64,000 bases of DNA from an archaeon (GTDB taxonomy: Archaea; Asgardarchaeota; Thorarchaeia; Thorarchaeales; Thorarchaeaceae). The translations under genes and the position numbers were made by a program. The notes under the pieces are model-generated. The model was not told the DNA's origin, did not search any database, and saw only the letters and a program-made list of their open reading frames with translations. Positions 27,715 to 34,635 of the stretch are shown here, piece after piece (position 1 is the stretch's first letter; the number at the start of each line of letters is the position of its first letter). The stretch lies in assembly GCA_024276825.1 (NCBI GenBank), contig JAJRWI010000003.1, positions 27,323 to 91,322 on the forward strand, read 5' to 3'.

Positions 27715-28677
27715 ATGACGAAAGCAAGAACCAAGCTGCTAGATGAGGTCATATCCAATCTAGAGGATGCTGGGTTTGAGCTGTCATCGAAATGTGATGT
27801 GCGCCCCACATGCTTTGACCTTGTTGCTAGAAAGGATGACAAACTAATATTGATCAAGGTGCTTGATAATGTTGGAGCCCTAACAAGGGAGGACGCCATT
27901 ACGCTCCAGCTTGTGGCACACTTTTTCAATGCCACCCCATTAATCATTGGTCGTAAGACAAGTAGAGGACCCTTGATGGAGGGTGTTGTTTACAAGAGAT
28001 ACGGGGTTTCGGCAATTGCACCGTCAAGTTTTGTGAGAATGATACATGAGGAACAGATGCCTCGCGTATTCAGTCAAAGGGGTGGACGGCTTGTGGTGAT
28101 TAATGGTGAGCGCCTGAGAGAAGCACGTCTGTCTAAGAGCATGACACAGGAGGAGCTTGCAGGCTATGTGAGGGTTTCAGCGCGTGTGATTCTCGCCTAT
28201 GAGCATAGTGAGATGGACGCCAGCATTGATGTGGCACAGGAGCTCGAACGGGTCTTAGAAACAGACCTGATAATTCCAATCGATCTGATGAGCAGAACTG
28301 TCACTCAAGAGCCAGTTGCAACCCCGCAGGTTTCGGACAATATCTCACATCTCGAACAAAGAGTTAACGAGTTTTTCGAGAAACTTGGCATGAGGGTCTT
28401 ATGGACTGATAGGGCACCATTCCATGTGGCTGCGAAGGAGAAGAGTCGTCCACTGATATCGGGAGTCGGATCATTAAAGAGTTGGACTCTGAAAAAGCGC
28501 ATTGATATACTCCGTAGTGTGTCAGATGTCACCAAATCCGATGCAGTGCTAATTGTGGAGGAGGGAATGGCTCAAGAGTCTGTTGCAGACCTCCCTGTGA
28601 TACGACAGGTCGAGCTTGAAGAGATTGACAAGTCACAGGAACTACGAAAGATAATCGCTGAGCGTTCTGGGCAGTGA
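27715..28677 (+). CDS. Archaeal HTH transcriptional regulator (COG1395-like)
   Basis: CFDLVAR..LILIKVL.N, RGG..V.INGE.LREAR, HTH TQEELA. Confidence 0.85.
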   Translation: MTKARTKLLDEVISNLEDAGFELSSKCDVRPTCFDLVARKDDKLILIKVLDNVGALTREDAITLQLVAHFFNATPLIIGRKTSRGPLMEGVVYKRYGVSAIAPSSFVRMIHEEQMPRVFSQRGGRLVVINGERLREARLSKSMTQEELAGYVRVSARVILAYEHSEMDASIDVAQELERVLETDLIIPIDLMSRTVTQEPVATPQVSDNISHLEQRVNEFFEKLGMRVLWTDRAPFHVAAKEKSRPLISGVGSLKSWTLKKRIDILRSVSDVTKSDAVLIVEEGMAQESVADLPVIRQVELEEIDKSQELRKIIAERSGQ

Positions 28678-28867
28678 ACTTCAGAGATGGAAAAGTTGTG
28701 CAAAGTTGTCATACTGGTCAGAATTGGAGTCGCGATCAAAAGAATGGGTGTGTTCACATTCACTCTCAAGACACCCGGCGGGTGGTGACACTTTTGGGGG
28801 AAGATCTGAACGCATGATCCTTGTATAGATAAGCTCATCTTCCAATGACAGGTTTGAATGAGTTCAG
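28675..28867. repeat. Dispersed structured intergenic element, copy A
   Basis: Hand alignment gives 122/157 identical nt to 33490-33646, plus a 31-nt insertion. Confidence 0.85.
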
Positions 28868-28881
28868 GTTGTTAGTGACAT

Positions 28882-29574
28882 CTAGAAGTTGTCAAGGCCC
28901 ATCTGACCAGATCTCATCTCATCTTGAATTCTCTTTATTGATGCCCATGATTTTCGAACAAAACTAGGAAGTTCTCCTTCTTCGCTCAACAGTTGTCGTA
29001 TGAAGGCGATGGACTTGGGGTCTGATGGATATCCGGAACCAAAGTCCCCGTAGCGGTCGTATAGGTCAGCGACTCTAGCATCACGTTCAACTTTTGCAAT
29101 GATTGCAGCAGCTGATACCACAGGGTACCTGGCATCTGCCTTATGTTCGGATATGAATCGTGTTCCAAGGGAAGCAAGACCACTCTTCTCTGCCACCAGA
29201 CGACCAAATCGTTCGGCATTAACATCGGCAGCATCCATGTATACCTCTTCTGGCTTGAGTTCCTTGACAATAAAGGCGAAGTTGATGGTTTCAATCTCGT
29301 TCATTGTGTACCCACTCTTCCTCAGAGCGTCAATCTCTGCTGCTGTTATTGTCTTAATCTCTATCCTTGCTGCCAGCCTTCGAATTGATTTGTCCAAGTT
29401 TCTACGGCGTTTGGGTGATAGTACTTTAGAGTCCCTAAGCCCTAAAGATTCCAACCTCTTGATGTCCCCCTTCTCAAACAACACACCACAGATTATCATA
29501 GGACCAATCATGGGGCCCCTGCCAGCCTCATCAAGACCTGCAACTCCCCTGATCCTAGTGTTCTTGGAACTCAT
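28882..29574 (-). CDS. rnhB: Ribonuclease HII
   Basis: GLDEAGRGP, DSK, HKAD, GSGYPSDP; C-terminal PIP-like QMGLDNF. Confidence 0.95.
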   Translation of the reverse strand: MSSKNTRIRGVAGLDEAGRGPMIGPMIICGVLFEKGDIKRLESLGLRDSKVLSPKRRRNLDKSIRRLAARIEIKTITAAEIDALRKSGYTMNEIETINFAFIVKELKPEEVYMDAADVNAERFGRLVAEKSGLASLGTRFISEHKADARYPVVSAAAIIAKVERDARVADLYDRYGDFGSGYPSDPKSIAFIRQLLSEEGELPSFVRKSWASIKRIQDEMRSGQMGLDNF

Positions 29575-29675
29575 GGCTATAATAATATTGGCAGCTCCTT
29601 ATTAACCAAGTCGAAACCTTCATATCGGAAAAATTAATGTGCACGTTAGGTTGCAAGGCCAGAAACACAGGCTTT

Positions 29676-29812
29676 GGGGACGTGGCCTAGTTGGCATGGC
29701 GACGGGCTCCAGATCTTATGATTCACGGGGTCATATCAGTAGAGACTCGTCGATCGTGGGTTCGAGACCCACTCACACTCCGTGATGGGTGAAAATCCCA
29801 CCGTCCCCACCA
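29676..29812 (+). tRNA. trnW: tRNA-Trp(CCA) with two introns (29713-29744 at 37/38; 29767-29795 at 59/60)
   Basis: GGGGACG/CGTCCCC acceptor, ACGGG/CTCGT anticodon stem, GTGGG/CCCAC T stem, encoded CCA; BHB-like motifs. Confidence 0.88.
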
Positions 29813-29906
29813 TTGCCTGCTACTATTTCTAGAGATGTTGCCTAATTGCTTATATCACAAGTCCTTTTTTACTTCATGCCATCTATTATTTGGGAGATTT
29901 TCTTCA

Positions 29907-30758
29907 ATGAAAATGCGATCCCTTGCCCCTATGATATTAGTGATCATGACGCTCATGCCAGTCCAAGTCATTCCAGTCTTGGCGTCCACATTGGGGGCAG
30001 AATTTCCACCTCAAGAGAATCTGCAGGTCTTTGAGATTGAATCATTCACTTACCGCATTGCAATCACAGCAGAGGATGGCACAGACCTGCTTCTAATCAG
30101 AGGGACCTATCAGGTGTATTATCACTATCAGCACCATCAACCTACAGTCAGCGAACATCATTACTACATCCTGATTGGGTTTTATTTTGGAAGGACCATG
30201 TTGGGAAGACCGCTCCTCAGTAGTGTTGCTGCAAGTCGGATTGCATTCTATCCCCAATGGCAAGATGCCACTGGTGTCAGACATGACATGGTCCGAGAGC
30301 ATCCGCTAATCATGGTTAATGATACAATCAGAGACCAGCAGATTATTGGGGCAACAATGTTAATGGTCAAGTTTCCGGTTTCACGATACTTATCGGAGTT
30401 CGGAGGTCAATGGGAAATCAAGGACCTTAATCTCACCCTTGTCGATGGTAGAGAAGTTTCAATCTCCAGCATCAGGATTGGCCTTGTAAAACATAACAAT
30501 GACAATCACCCAGTGATCTCCTTCTTTAACAGCTCTGATGACCTCACCTATTCTGCGGAGAATACAAGACTTGCCATCAGTCTAGCAGTGCCTGCTTCTG
30601 CTATAATGCTGCTCGACTCAGCAGTGTTCTATTCAAGCATTATTCTCCTCTCATCATTTGCGGTCTCTGCCATAGTGAGAATCAGAAACAGAGTCAGGAG
30701 AGAGATGAATCCAAGTGATATATCCACAGTCCTGAATTCAGAATCATATTGGGGTTAG
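29907..30758 (+). CDS. Hypothetical exported, membrane-anchored protein
   Basis: Signal-peptide-like N-terminus from MKMRS and a C-terminal TM followed by basic residues. Confidence 0.6.
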   Translation: MKMRSLAPMILVIMTLMPVQVIPVLASTLGAEFPPQENLQVFEIESFTYRIAITAEDGTDLLLIRGTYQVYYHYQHHQPTVSEHHYYILIGFYFGRTMLGRPLLSSVAASRIAFYPQWQDATGVRHDMVREHPLIMVNDTIRDQQIIGATMLMVKFPVSRYLSEFGGQWEIKDLNLTLVDGREVSISSIRIGLVKHNNDNHPVISFFNSSDDLTYSAENTRLAISLAVPASAIMLLDSAVFYSSIILLSSFAVSAIVRIRNRVRREMNPSDISTVLNSESYWG

Positions 30759-30821
30759 CAGATAATAATCTTCAGTGCTCTAGAGTAATCTTTAATAACA
30801 GATTCCGCCGACTTCACTCTT

Positions 30822-30940
30822 GATGCCGGCCATAGGTGGCGGGGCTCACCCGATCTCGTTCCGATCTCGGAAGTTAAGCCCGCTACCGTTGTGGGAGATC
30901 TGCGGTGCGCGAGCCCGTGAGAGGCCCACAAGCTGGCACA
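30822..30940 (+). rRNA. rrf: 5S rRNA (unlinked from 16S/23S)
   Basis: TGCCGGC/GCTGGCA helix I; CACCCGATCTCGTTCCGATCTCGGAAGTTAAG conserved core. Confidence 0.92.
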
Positions 30941-31002
30941 TTCTTGTTCTTGGTGCGAGAATTGTGATTGTATAAACAGCTAAGCTTAAAGGAGAAAGCA
31001 CA

Positions 31003-32139
31003 ATGGGGGGAGTGATAGTGATGCAAGCAGTTCAGACGGACCCCTTTAGCTGGATTATTAATTTGCTATTCTTTGCGTTTATCATAATCATTAGTCTATA
31101 TGGCGCCAAGATACAGATGTGGCAGTGGCTCAAGCAGATAGAAGTGGGGCTACTAGAGTTAAAACAGATGTTCTTTGAGTCAAGACAGGTGGCAATTGAC
31201 ACTTTCAAGAGGTATGGGAAGGATGAAAAAGAGGTTGCAAAGGATTTAGACAGGTGGCTAGACTATTTCACGATCATGCCAGTTGATTTAGACCCGGCTG
31301 GAGTGCTAAAGCGCTTGGATCACCTTCTAGACAACCGCCGAAACCGCTTTCAGGAGTTTGTGAGTGATCTGGCACCGCAAGCAACAGAGAGTCAGGTGCA
31401 GTCCTTAGAGAACACGTTGGAAGTCACCCAAGTGCTCGGACTAATTTTTCGTATAGTTAGGCACTTTTACATTCTTGGAAAGAAGACTGGAAGTCAGATT
31501 CTGATCATGCAGATTCATATGCAGATGCCCGATATCATGAGGTTGGCAAAGGCATATTATGAGGCCTTGGACGCGTTCTCTGAGGAGAAGCCCATAGGCG
31601 ATGGAATAGGGCCTTTGGTAGTGACCAAGTTTGCTCATGAGATGGGGGCAACTGCCAATGACTATGTTCATGAGGTGACCCGTGAGGTCGGATACTACAA
31701 GGTCAAATTTGAGAACAGGGATGTCTTTGTGCTTCGTGCAACTGGTCCTGGGGGTACTGTTGGGAAGCCAGGCTTTGCAGTGAAGAAGATTGTAGAAGAG
31801 AACAATGGTCAGATATCTCGGATAATCACTGTGGATGCAGCCTTAAAACTCGAGGGGGAAGAATTAGGCAGGGTTTCAGAGGGCACAGGTGCTGCGATTG
31901 GAGATCCCGGTCCTGAGAAGTATGCCATCGAACAGACTGCCACAGACTTCAACATTGGTATTGAGGCCATCGTCATAAAAGAGGATGAGGCAGCTGCTAT
32001 TGGAGTTATGCCAAAGCAGGTGTTGGATGCCTTGCCCGAAGTGATAGAGAGGATAAAGGAGGCCATTCTCAAGAGGACCAAACCGGGAGAGAAGATAATC
32101 TTGGCGGGAATTGGCAACACCATAGGCATAGGACTCTGA
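31003..32139 (+). CDS. DUF1512 family protein
   Basis: N-terminal TM, PVDLDPAG, PIGDGIGPLV, VDAALKLEGE, GIGNTIGI. Confidence 0.85.
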   Translation: MGGVIVMQAVQTDPFSWIINLLFFAFIIIISLYGAKIQMWQWLKQIEVGLLELKQMFFESRQVAIDTFKRYGKDEKEVAKDLDRWLDYFTIMPVDLDPAGVLKRLDHLLDNRRNRFQEFVSDLAPQATESQVQSLENTLEVTQVLGLIFRIVRHFYILGKKTGSQILIMQIHMQMPDIMRLAKAYYEALDAFSEEKPIGDGIGPLVVTKFAHEMGATANDYVHEVTREVGYYKVKFENRDVFVLRATGPGGTVGKPGFAVKKIVEENNGQISRIITVDAALKLEGEELGRVSEGTGAAIGDPGPEKYAIEQTATDFNIGIEAIVIKEDEAAAIGVMPKQVLDALPEVIERIKEAILKRTKPGEKIILAGIGNTIGIGL

Positions 32140-32140
32140 G

Positions 32141-32521
32141 GTGAATAATATGGGAATTGCAGGTAAGATAATTGGTGTAATAATGACTGGGACTGGGATG
32201 GTGTTGTTGACATTGGGCATGGATCCAAATATTGGTATTCTCTCGTGGGGATATTTCATCATCGGACTCTTCATGATGTCCCTTGGTATGGCATTGATCA
32301 CTGGGGGCAAGTCACAACAGGTGAAAAAGCCAAAGCCCCCAACAATCACTGAAATCAGGTGCGATAATACCGAGTGCACCTTCAAAGAACTCCGTGATTT
32401 CGAGCGTGGCGATTACATTCTAAAGCCCCTAGATGTGTCATGTCCAAGATGTGGAAGTACAATGACCATCCAAGGAATCTATATTGTCAGGGACGAGTCA
32501 GAAGAGAAGATCAAGATATGA
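32141..32521 (+). CDS. Small membrane protein with C-terminal Zn ribbon
   Basis: 2 TMs; C-x4-C...RDFERGDYI...CPRC. Confidence 0.7.
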   Translation: MNNMGIAGKIIGVIMTGTGMVLLTLGMDPNIGILSWGYFIIGLFMMSLGMALITGGKSQQVKKPKPPTITEIRCDNTECTFKELRDFERGDYILKPLDVSCPRCGSTMTIQGIYIVRDESEEKIKI

Positions 32522-32527
32522 TTGGAC

Positions 32528-33427
32528 TCATCTCGTGAGAACGATGGGTCCTGTTTCACTGATGAATATTGTATCCTCAGACTGTGAAACAGGGCGTCCA
32601 CTCCTCTCATATATGACTGGATGCCCTTTGATTACACGATAACGTAGCAACTCCCGGATTGTTGCAACTAGGTCTATGCTTTCCTCTTTTACACCAATCC
32701 ATCGTAGGGCAAATGGGAGAGGGCCATATTTCTTCAGAAGATGCAACCTGAGCTTCTCAGCGACCCCTTTCAAGCCCCGGTCCAACCCGGTATTGGAGAA
32801 CATGTAGATGTTTTTACTGTCTTGAATGTTTCTCCCTGTTGTGGCATATGGCTCGATTGCATAATATTCGCCAGACTCGATTCTTCCGATGCCTCGCTTC
32901 TTCTCATTCGGGACTATTTTTCCAGCATACAGTTTGAACTGTTCAATGCTGTGACCACTCATGTTCTTGACAGGGCGAAGACCATACGCCTTTATGACCT
33001 TCGCTATTCTTGAACCAATGTCACCAAGGTCCCTGCCAGGTGTCATCATTTCAATTGCTTCTTGAAGTGCATCATCAGTGGCATCAATAAACCCGCTGAT
33101 TGTGCCATCAATGTCCACTGTTCGAGCAGTGTCTGCAATATACCCATCCACATGTACGCCTATGTCTATCTTTACAAGACCCCAATCGGGAATGACTGCC
33201 CTGTCCCTTGGGGGTGAGGTATAATGAGCAACCACTTCATTGAGGGACACACAGGCAGGGAACGCTGGGAGGCCACCATATTCGACAATCTTTTTCTCCG
33301 CAGTATTGCAGATCCGATATAGTTTTACTCCAGGCTTTATTTCTTGGACTATCTCCCTCATTACTCGCGCTGCAATGGCCCCCGCCCTTACACTCAGTGG
33401 ATGTGGCTTTGAAGTCATATGCACCAA
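32528..33427 (-). CDS. map: Type II methionine aminopeptidase paralogue with active-site substitution
   Basis: DIGVHVDGYIAD, GH, AIEP and QSE ligands present; LHAG changed to LYAG. Confidence 0.8.
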   Translation of the reverse strand: MVHMTSKPHPLSVRAGAIAARVMREIVQEIKPGVKLYRICNTAEKKIVEYGGLPAFPACVSLNEVVAHYTSPPRDRAVIPDWGLVKIDIGVHVDGYIADTARTVDIDGTISGFIDATDDALQEAIEMMTPGRDLGDIGSRIAKVIKAYGLRPVKNMSGHSIEQFKLYAGKIVPNEKKRGIGRIESGEYYAIEPYATTGRNIQDSKNIYMFSNTGLDRGLKGVAEKLRLHLLKKYGPLPFALRWIGVKEESIDLVATIRELLRYRVIKGHPVIYERSGRPVSQSEDTIFISETGPIVLTR

Positions 33428-33485
33428 TGACTAATCATCAACAGCCCTCTTAAGATGTTTCATCAGCGCGAGTGAGTTGAGCCGC

Positions 33486-33646
33486 AAATTTCAGTGGTGG
33501 AAAAGTTGTGCAGACTTGTCATGTCAGTCAGAAGTGGAGTCATGGCAAAAAGAATTGGCGCATTCACTTTCACTCTCAGAGGATGGGAACACATGGTCCT
33601 TGTTCGGACTGGTTCATCTTCCGATGATAAGTTTGAATAAGTTCAG
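33486..33646. repeat. Dispersed structured intergenic element, copy B
   Basis: Homologous to 28680-28867, same orientation. Confidence 0.85.
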
Positions 33647-33655
33647 TCCGTCGGA

Positions 33656-34552
33656 CTAGTCCATTCTGGTTGTGACTATAGCGCCCCTTTCGCCAACAAA
33701 AATTGAGTGTTCAGCTTGAGACACCAGCCCGTCTTTGCCCTCGAGAAGGACCGGATATTGGTGTATTGCCCCTGCCCTAACAAGGTTGTGAATTGCAGCA
33801 TCAATATTGGTCTTCCCATCGTACAGCCATCGAGATGCCCATGGCAGAGACCCAAACTTGCGTCTGGCAGTGTTCCTGACCTGCATGGTAAGCCGATCCA
33901 ACTTCTTCTTATTGGACATGTTGTTTGAGAAAATATAGGCCTCCCTCGAGTTTTTGATTGTGCCATTGCCATTGGTGGCAAAGGGCTCGATTGCAAATGT
34001 TTCTCCAAGCATCATCTTGTCAGACCTGCGGGTACCAATGTTAGGAACATTTTTCCCAGCATGTAGGTTCCATTGTTTCAGTTGATGTCCTGATAGTTGG
34101 TGTACAGGTTTAAGACCATGCCTTTTGATTGATCTTTCGATGACCTTTCCAATTTCACCAACTTGAACGCCCGGATATACTGCATCAATGGCTGCATCAA
34201 GAGCATCATTAGCTGCAATGATGTAGTTCTCCAGCGACCCATCGAGATCCACAGTTATCGCAGTATCAGAGATATGCCCGTTCACATGAGCGCCAATGTC
34301 CAGCTTGACAAGCCCCTTGTCTGGAAATACTCGTCTATCGCCATACGGACTGCTATAATGCGCCGCCTCATTATTAATTGAAACATTGCAGGGAAATGCC
34401 AGTCGCCCCCCGTACTCGATTATTCTCTTTTCTGCTAAGGTGCAGATCTTTAAAACTTTCACCCCGGGTCTGATGAGCTTAGAGACTTCTTTGATCACTC
34501 TTGCTGTAATTTTGCCTGCCTGAATGAAGTCAGGATGTGGCTGAACTGTCAT
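33656..34552 (-). CDS. map: Type II methionine aminopeptidase (canonical)
   Basis: AAHY, DIGAHVNGHISD, GHQL...LHAG, AIEPF, QAEH. Confidence 0.9.
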   Translation of the reverse strand: MTVQPHPDFIQAGKITARVIKEVSKLIRPGVKVLKICTLAEKRIIEYGGRLAFPCNVSINNEAAHYSSPYGDRRVFPDKGLVKLDIGAHVNGHISDTAITVDLDGSLENYIIAANDALDAAIDAVYPGVQVGEIGKVIERSIKRHGLKPVHQLSGHQLKQWNLHAGKNVPNIGTRRSDKMMLGETFAIEPFATNGNGTIKNSREAYIFSNNMSNKKKLDRLTMQVRNTARRKFGSLPWASRWLYDGKTNIDAAIHNLVRAGAIHQYPVLLEGKDGLVSQAEHSIFVGERGAIVTTRMD

Positions 34553-34635
34553 ATTATCGCCACTACTGCAACAAACTGGAAGAGTCTTAAGCAATTCTGT
34601 CTGACTAATCGGTAAAGAAAGTAGGTGAGAATCTG

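Follow-up and report, generated by a model that had tools for sequence, protein, structure and literature searches.

Two short, gene-less stretches of DNA in the genome of a Thorarchaeaceae archaeon, here called copies A and B, are very probably members of a family, some 20 strong, of non-autonomous elements that arose from an IS607-family transposon by internal deletion. They lie in a window of 64,000 nucleotides (nt) (the whole stretch of DNA that we analyzed, G000:C35:27323-91322, where G000 is this genome; the assembly is 2.9 Mb long and 98% complete). A first-pass annotation of the window had described the two stretches as diverged copies of a structured noncoding RNA or of a mobile element. 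The parent of the family would have carried tnpA, encoding a serine recombinase with an N-terminal MerR-type helix-turn-helix (HTH), and tnpB, encoding an RNA-guided nuclease, together with its omega guide RNA. Each copy combines the left end of this parent (a leader of ~35 nt plus the first ~23 tnpA codons) with the last 68 to 99 nt of its right end, the intervening sequence having been lost through deletions at short microhomologies. The positions of A and B, of their parts, and of the neighboring genes are collected in Table 1.

A family of about 20 copies in one genome

The idea that the element is multicopy held up well. Searches of the whole 2.9-Mb assembly with blastn and nhmmer returned a family of ~20 copies to which both A and B belong. 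The sizes are nested, at ~165, 230 to 310, and 630 to 670 nt. Seven copies, A and B among them, measure ~158 to 202 nt, four measure 229 to 311 nt, and two are complete long copies (637 and 668 nt). More long copies are truncated by contig ends (C12 at both ends, C47, and C36), and there are a few fragments that consist of the right end only. When 15 left ends and 18 right ends were aligned with their flanks, the similarity began just after a conserved G and terminated at a GGTTGTCAG-type end. The location first given for the two copies was correct, but the family alignment places their ends ~5 to 9 nt farther out on each side (28675-28875 and 33485-33654).

Pairwise identity between the copies is 64 to 84%. 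A and B themselves align with MAFFT at 80% mean column identity with one 31-column gap, and at 73% identity in the family-guided alignment; their proposed homology is confirmed by this alignment and by the recurrence of the sequence elsewhere in the genome. Many of the copies are found at the 3' ends of genes, a frequent setting being the gap between convergent genes.

Contig C28 (92.8 kb) carries seven of the ~20 copies (at 1.9, 13.9, 34.4, 51.3, 74.8, 81.9, and 84.8 kb), a clustering that suggests local hopping. The long copy at 81.9 kb is immediately upstream of the leader of the ribosomal protein eL15 (Rfam RF03144, L031:1707-1754). Four contig ends (C12:1-261, C12:14228-14487, C47:1-336, and C36:1-290) break inside long-form copies, all at the same internal position (long-form coordinates ~343 to 416), and C12 (14.5 kb) is bounded by two inverted family copies. 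The repeat family is one cause of assembly fragmentation.

The left end carries a remnant of tnpA

The long form on contig C4 contains an 82-codon 5' open reading frame (ORF) that matches the Pfam MerR family with an E value of 8e-14, above the curated cutoff. Decayed versions of this ORF were detected by tblastn in nearly every copy. On C36, the remnant continues into a YARVSS-type serine-recombinase motif (a remnant of the region of the catalytic serine); A and B retain only the first ~23 to 25 tnpA codons. We also considered a coding reading in another frame, based on Cys/His spacing, and dropped it on account of a stop codon in the C56 copy; the true remnant is the MerR HTH of tnpA.

A full-length element is present in G005, a genome from a related genus of the same taxonomic family. 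Its left end is 78% identical to that of the G000 family and is followed by an intact 207-amino-acid (aa) TnpA (Resolvase domain, E = 7e-16) and then by a 707-aa TnpB-like ORF. The G005 TnpA shares 46% identity with the long-form remnant of G000 (E = 7e-11). A MerR-HTH serine recombinase followed by tnpB is the layout of the IS607 family (PMC6188088; 10.1101/2023.11.20.567912).

A sample of 81 genomes of the taxonomic family included 16 with IS607-type TnpAs. The G000 assembly, 98% complete, yielded no Resolvase domain and holds only decayed N-terminal stubs (on C81, on C36, and in the long forms). The stub on C81 (~166.3 to 166.8 kb; L036:1518-1928, minus strand) belongs to a second, different decayed IS607 element, in which a 136-aa TnpA stub (MerR/HTH_17 plus the first ~50 Resolvase residues) precedes a TnpB zinc-ribbon fragment.

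A and B carry different internal deletions

In the coordinates of the 668-nt long form, the short copies, including B, consist of left-end positions 1 to 121 joined to right-end positions 601 to 668. Copy A consists of left-end positions 1 to 95, a short further piece of tnpA (codons KTPGG), and right-end positions 570 to 668, and other copies show still other breakpoints. The junctions fall at microhomologies, GAACG in the short form and GGTGGG in the mid forms. Set against the long form, A and B are internal-deletion derivatives of a longer parent with different breakpoints. The 31-nt indel that separates them, at first taken to extend an apical hairpin, is instead the net result of these two different deletions. 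The bases that MAFFT pairs beside the gap are not homologous, being derived from the left end in B and from the right end in A.

The aligned short copies have one common junction and lie at unrelated loci. The simplest reading of this pattern would be a single deletion that was then spread in trans. Substitutions in the short copies are distributed over the three codon positions as 11/15/18, with no third-position bias, which, together with the disruption of the 39-codon fusion ORF in most copies, would fit neutral decay. Because no recombinase gene was found in G000 and the copies have diverged to the extent given above, they are most likely fossils that no longer move and are decaying neutrally.

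Both sites are empty in related genomes

The sites of A and B are without the element in G001 and G002, two genomes of the same genus, a result that agrees with the earlier suggestion of a mobile element. The genes flanking A abut (0 nt) in G002 and overlap by 4 nt in G001, whereas they are 204 nt apart here. This spacing equals the 201-nt element plus 3 nt, and the C termini of the flanking proteins are collinear with those in G001 and G002. Likewise, a gap of 225 nt here separates the M24 peptidase genes on either side of B, which in G001 and G002 overlap or are spaced by 25 nt. We relied on the comparison of ORF ends because the empty sites, at ~66% identity, gave nucleotide alignments with too much noise. 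By this measure of gene ends, A and B are shown to be insertions relative to the two congeners.

A T-G-A-R-C-N-G motif marks the left flank (of 14 copies, all have the G and 12 have the C). The right flank holds little information. This pattern would be expected for a target-adjacent motif (TAM) at the left end and a free guide region at the right end. The motif contains stop-codon triplets and often overlaps stop codons, and we propose that this overlap, together with selection against genic insertion, led to the accumulation of copies at gene 3' ends.

No target duplication was found in the copies beyond an ambiguous 2 to 5 nt shared at the junctions of A. The ends of A are ambiguous within a 5-nt repeat, AGTGA, found once at each junction (28673-28677 and 28874-28878). 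All 14 left junctions read N-G, and AG closes 10 of 18 right ends; by analogy with the GG of IS607, the exchange dinucleotide is probably N-G, mostly AG. For site A, the simplest ancestral arrangement would have the TGA stop of the upstream gene at the place where the element now starts. IS607 elements have no terminal inverted repeats, make no target duplications, and exchange over an identical 2-bp core (PMC6188088). TnpA excises mini-elements built from 60-bp ends, with the TAM immediately beside the left end (10.1101/2023.11.20.567912).

The right end and the question of guide RNAs

The 3' ~370 nt of the long form has a G+C content of 57 to 61%, compared to ~40% in the flanks. The 3' half of the long form aligns to the 3' tail of the only intact tnpB of the genome and to the sequence immediately downstream of it. 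This gene (549 aa, G000:C24:45302-47097; L035:340-2135) encodes a protein with a Cas12f1-like TNB domain (E = 5e-12) and a weak OrfB_IS605 match. The homology is at the level of nucleotides and structure, in a different frame, and a BLASTP comparison of the 133-aa ORF of the long form with the C24 TnpB was not significant.

Seven long and mid copies share a conserved multihelix fold in their final ~155 nt, with 95.5% of alignment cells paired versus ~44% when the partner is slid, and two of the hairpins show compensatory changes. A covariance model of this region (R1, 154 positions) has a match at the C24 locus (E ~1e-8) that begins 38 nt ahead of the tnpB stop codon. In relatives, R1 matches start 38 nt before the stop of ORFs of 500 to 570 aa (E of 1e-10 to 1e-11) that share the C-terminal tail of the C24 TnpB. 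By sequence and predicted fold, then, the right end of the family derives from a TnpB omega-RNA scaffold, and its position is as in TnpB elements. Rfam has no model for the scaffold, as seen in a permissive-E search of the copies, the long forms, the intact tnpB locus, and the G005 loci; the only Rfam matches nearby were the 5S rRNA, tRNAs, and the eL15 leader. Upstream of the C24 tnpB there is no tnpA and no family left end, and the locus is a candidate solo TnpB/omega-RNA module.

The 707-aa TnpB-like ORF of G005 (G005:C19; L067:883-3006, minus strand) is unusually large and has only a weak TNB-domain match; its stop codon lies ~20 nt inside the right end of the element. It aligns weakly with the C24 TnpB, in the zinc-ribbon and RuvC regions only, with nearly no BLASTP similarity. 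We rejected the G005 element as a complete model of the parent and regard it as a relative of the left end and tnpA only.

Copy A retains R1 positions ~43 to 154 of 154 (about two-thirds of the scaffold), and copy B retains positions ~80 to 154 (about half). The helices without a counterpart in A and B include both of those with compensatory support. Long and mid copies elsewhere have a complete scaffold adjoining the flank, whereas A and B do not. As too little of the scaffold is retained, neither A nor B is likely to be a working guide RNA. The first-pass annotation had also raised the possibility of a guide or bridge RNA of a mobile element. This was right insofar as the family right end stems from an omega-RNA scaffold, but A and B hold that scaffold in part, and it is of the IS607/TnpB type and not an IS110 bridge RNA. 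We rejected both an IS110 bridge RNA and an IS200/IS605 (Y1) element, given that the remnants are those of a MerR-HTH serine recombinase and that there was no Rfam match.

It is very unlikely that the copies are stand-alone guide-RNA genes, whose right ends and flanks would serve in trans as omega RNAs for the C24 TnpB. The homology of the right end to the 3' scaffold of the C24 tnpB, in both sequence and structure, would favor such a role, as would the whole ~155-nt scaffold kept by the long and mid copies. However, the scaffold is incomplete in A and B, the final ~50 nt beside the guide align poorly with the C24 scaffold, and without TnpA there are no excision joints to target. At the level of the family, and particularly for the long and mid copies with a full scaffold, we see a slim chance that the copies are dispersed orphan guide-RNA genes that program the tnpA-less TnpB of C24 with the sequence adjacent to each copy. 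If this were true, it could mean RNA-guided cleavage or repression at gene 3' ends by the host or by the element, with A and B as decayed members.

A probable DNA-level role for the inverted repeat

Substitutions between A and B had been taken as compensatory changes that preserve a plus-strand RNA rod, the arms of which form a 12-bp inverted repeat. The complementarity of the arms is real: they form 10 to 12 of 12 pairs in nearly all copies, and in an 11-copy alignment 84% of cells are paired, compared to 21 to 38% with the partner slid. The compensatory changes, on the other hand, are not significant. Covariation in the rod did not exceed that in shuffled alignments (0.201 versus 0.190 ± 0.016; 126 of 500 shuffles as high), and an alternative local-hairpin model gave 0.172, versus 0.168 in shuffles. 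The same 12-bp inverted repeat is present in the full-length G005 element, where the arms are ~3.4 kb apart, which argues for a DNA-level role of the repeat. The repeat is subterminal, not terminal, and direct-orientation copies of its TTGTCA core are also present in the left end and at the extreme right terminus. We infer that the arms are inverted copies of a putative TnpA-binding motif with a TTGTCA core. In IS607, TnpA binds subterminal repeats (PMC6188088).

The interpretation of A and B as a novel structured RNA does not survive the addition of more copies, as no significant covariation emerged and the sequence matches decayed coding sequence (the tnpA MerR HTH). A bulge described as invariant and as a possible pseudoknot partner differs from copy to copy within the family, and in the long copies other sequence stands in its place.

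More doubtful still than the guide-RNA genes is a host-domesticated RNA or cis element that forms the plus-strand rod, for example, a stabilizer in the 3' untranslated region or a terminator between convergent genes. Such an element would agree with the complementary arms, with the location of many copies at gene 3' ends and between convergent genes, and with the fact that intermediates are mostly G-T, which a plus-strand RNA tolerates. The lack of covariation above shuffles, in the rod or in local hairpins, speaks against it, as do the wide separation of the arms in the G005 element and the absence of the element from the orthologous sites of congeners. In addition, several copies show indels and disrupted helices, an apparently neutral decay, and there is no Rfam match.

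We give hardly any credence to a small protein, namely, the idea that the 39-codon TnpA(N)-TnpB(C) fusion ORF of copy B is a functional peptide, such as a half-HTH transposition inhibitor. The ORF is open in B and starts with ATG, but stops or frameshifts interrupt it in most of the other copies (A among them), the short copies lack third-position bias, and the fusion ORF has no Pfam match. The chance of a box C/D small RNA on the minus strand is likewise close to nil: A and B have a near match to box C and a CTGA, but the box-C-like stretch varies in the family, the long copies have unrelated sequence there, and no C/D family in Rfam reaches an E value of 1 on A or B. Nor did A or B match any other known RNA family in Rfam.

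Points against an IS607-type origin

Some observations weigh against reading the copies as deletion derivatives of an IS607-family element. We found no complete parent that has both the tnpA type and the tnpB/omega-RNA type of G000. The TnpB-like protein of G005 is only distantly related to the tnpB that shares the scaffold, and R1 gives no match on the G005 element. In some copies, the exchange dinucleotide at one junction does not cleanly match that at the other, perhaps as a result of later mutation. Four rod pairs have two-sided changes where 2.0 are expected (47 of 500 shuffles), and a weak RNA-level constraint on the rod is conceivable. Finally, substitutions in the tnpA remnant of mid and long-type copies show a third-position excess (14/16/29, alignment A4), suggesting that there were several diverged, once-functional parents. 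With several parents, recurrent deletion at the same microhomology is possible.

Proposed mode of mobility

For the IS607-type derivatives, we propose a DNA-based route in which a cognate TnpA, acting in trans, excised and reinserted the elements. The recombinase would bind the subterminal TTGTCA-type motifs, and the 12-bp inverted pair among them would be what appears as the rod. Insertion would take place without target duplication, beside a left-flank T-G-A-R-C-N-G acting as the TAM. At site A, the first bases of the element (TAA/TGA) would resupply the stop codon.

Genes around the two copies

As the first-pass annotation had noted, both copies lie directly behind the stop codons of minus-strand genes, rnhB for A and map for B, and Pfam supports both names; the distances are 6 nt for A and 1 nt for B. 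The junction between the left and right ends of B is identical to that of the other short copies. The two M24 peptidase (map-like) paralogs at 32528-34594 stand in tandem, with copy B wedged between them. In G001, the stop-to-stop frames of their orthologs overlap by ~23 nt, and the insertion of B may have separated a cotranscribed pair. Between A and B, the window also contains a tRNA with a long insert (29676-29780; its 24 bits in Rfam fall short of the threshold owing to a 36-nt intron) and a 5S rRNA gene (30822-30941; 70.6 bits).

Table 1. Copies A and B, their parts, and adjacent genes (positions in the window)
Feature	Position	Strand	Description	Basis
Copy A	28675..28875	+	Putative 201-bp IS607-type mini-element without genes; mid form carrying a further internal deletion of ~40 nt	Family alignments; deletion map versus long form; empty site in G001 and G002
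Copy A, left-end part	28675..28780	+	~35-nt untranslated leader plus broken tnpA remnant	tblastn with long-form MerR ORF; translation
Copy A, tnpA remnant	28711-28788	+	Start codon mutated to ATA; translation ILVRIGVAIKRMGVFTFTLKTPGGW*	
Copy A, right-end part	28780..28875	+	~Last 99 nt of parent; junction with left end within GGTGGG microhomology	
Copy A, left arm of 12-bp subterminal inverted repeat	28701..28712	+		Same repeat in full-length G005 element
Copy A, right arm of 12-bp subterminal inverted repeat	28845..28856	+		
Copy B	33485..33654	+	170-bp short form of the same element	Genome searches; family alignments; deletion map; orthologous spacer shortened or absent in G001 and G002
Copy B, left-end part	33485..33590	+	Holds first 23 tnpA codons; ATG at 33521	
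Copy B, right-end part	33587..33654	+	Last ~68 nt of parent; terminal hairpin and tail only; GAAC microhomology joint at 33587-33590	
Copy B, left arm of subterminal inverted repeat	33511..33522	+		
Copy B, right arm of subterminal inverted repeat	33624..33635	+		
Accidental fusion ORF in copy B	33521..33640	+	39 codons: 23 from TnpA N terminus plus 16 ending like the TnpB-like ORF of the G005 element	
HTH_3-domain gene	27715..28677	+	Stop TGA (28675-28677) is the first three bases of copy A	
rnhB (RNase HII)	28882..29574	-	Stop codon 6 nt past right end of copy A	Pfam
M24 peptidase (map-like) paralog	32528..33427	-	Downstream of copy B	Pfam
M24 peptidase (map-like) paralog	33656..34594	-	Stop codon 1 nt past right end of copy B	Pfam

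Relation to known elements and meaning

We compared the family with the IS607 family (IS607, IS1535, ISC1926, the Clostridium botulinum IS607-type IStron, and an engineered mini-insertion sequence [mini-IS]). Shared features are a tnpA encoding a MerR-HTH serine recombinase, a tnpB and guide-RNA scaffold at the right end, subterminal repeat motifs, the lack of true terminal inverted repeats and apparently of a clear target duplication, and a conserved motif that abuts the left end in the place of the TAM. Like the engineered 60-bp mini-IS, the copies consist of short left and right ends, which in that system are sufficient for mobilization in trans. In contrast to the IS607 family, the copies have lost both genes, G000 yielded no autonomous partner, and there is a prominent 12-bp subterminal inverted pair. 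The junction is N-G (mostly AG), whereas it is GG in IS607, and there is no group I intron.

From their sequence, the copies have the features of MITEs (miniature inverted-repeat transposable elements) or non-autonomous insertion sequences: they are small and multicopy, have no intact ORF, carry the ends of a parent, and lack a transposase of their own. Of the readings offered by the first-pass annotation, this is the one borne out, by the copy number, the internal deletion of a transposon, and the sites that are empty in congeners. With MITEs and with palindrome-associated transposable elements (PATEs; protein-less derivatives of the IS200/IS605 superfamily), the copies share their small size, multicopy and noncoding nature, intergenic location, parental ends, and dependence on a transposase in trans. 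Classical MITEs differ in having terminal inverted repeats and target duplications (made by DDE transposases), as opposed to the serine-recombinase ends found here, and PATEs use the hairpin ends of Y1 TnpA instead of IS607-type ends. The right end of the long and mid copies resembles TnpB omega RNAs (OMEGA) in its multihelix scaffold. In intact loci this scaffold covers the final 38 nt of tnpB and extends as far as the end of the transposon; the guide would accordingly be flanking DNA. A and B differ from omega RNAs in keeping only the 3' part of the scaffold, and no Rfam family exists for it.

The analysis is in the first place a correction. What looked like a novel structured RNA with compensatory pairs is a pair of transposon ends joined by internal deletion, a recurring trap in Asgard genomes. 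Our knowledge of the mechanism of such elements is unchanged, and A and B seem to be an ordinary example of known selfish DNA, not a new RNA gene. The work adds a documented family of IS607-type mini-elements in a Thorarchaeota genome, with nested breakpoints, empty sites, and a candidate TAM-like motif. It also adds a covariance model for a TnpB guide-RNA scaffold that has no Rfam entry, which is useful for annotation and for mining archaeal TnpB and omega RNAs.

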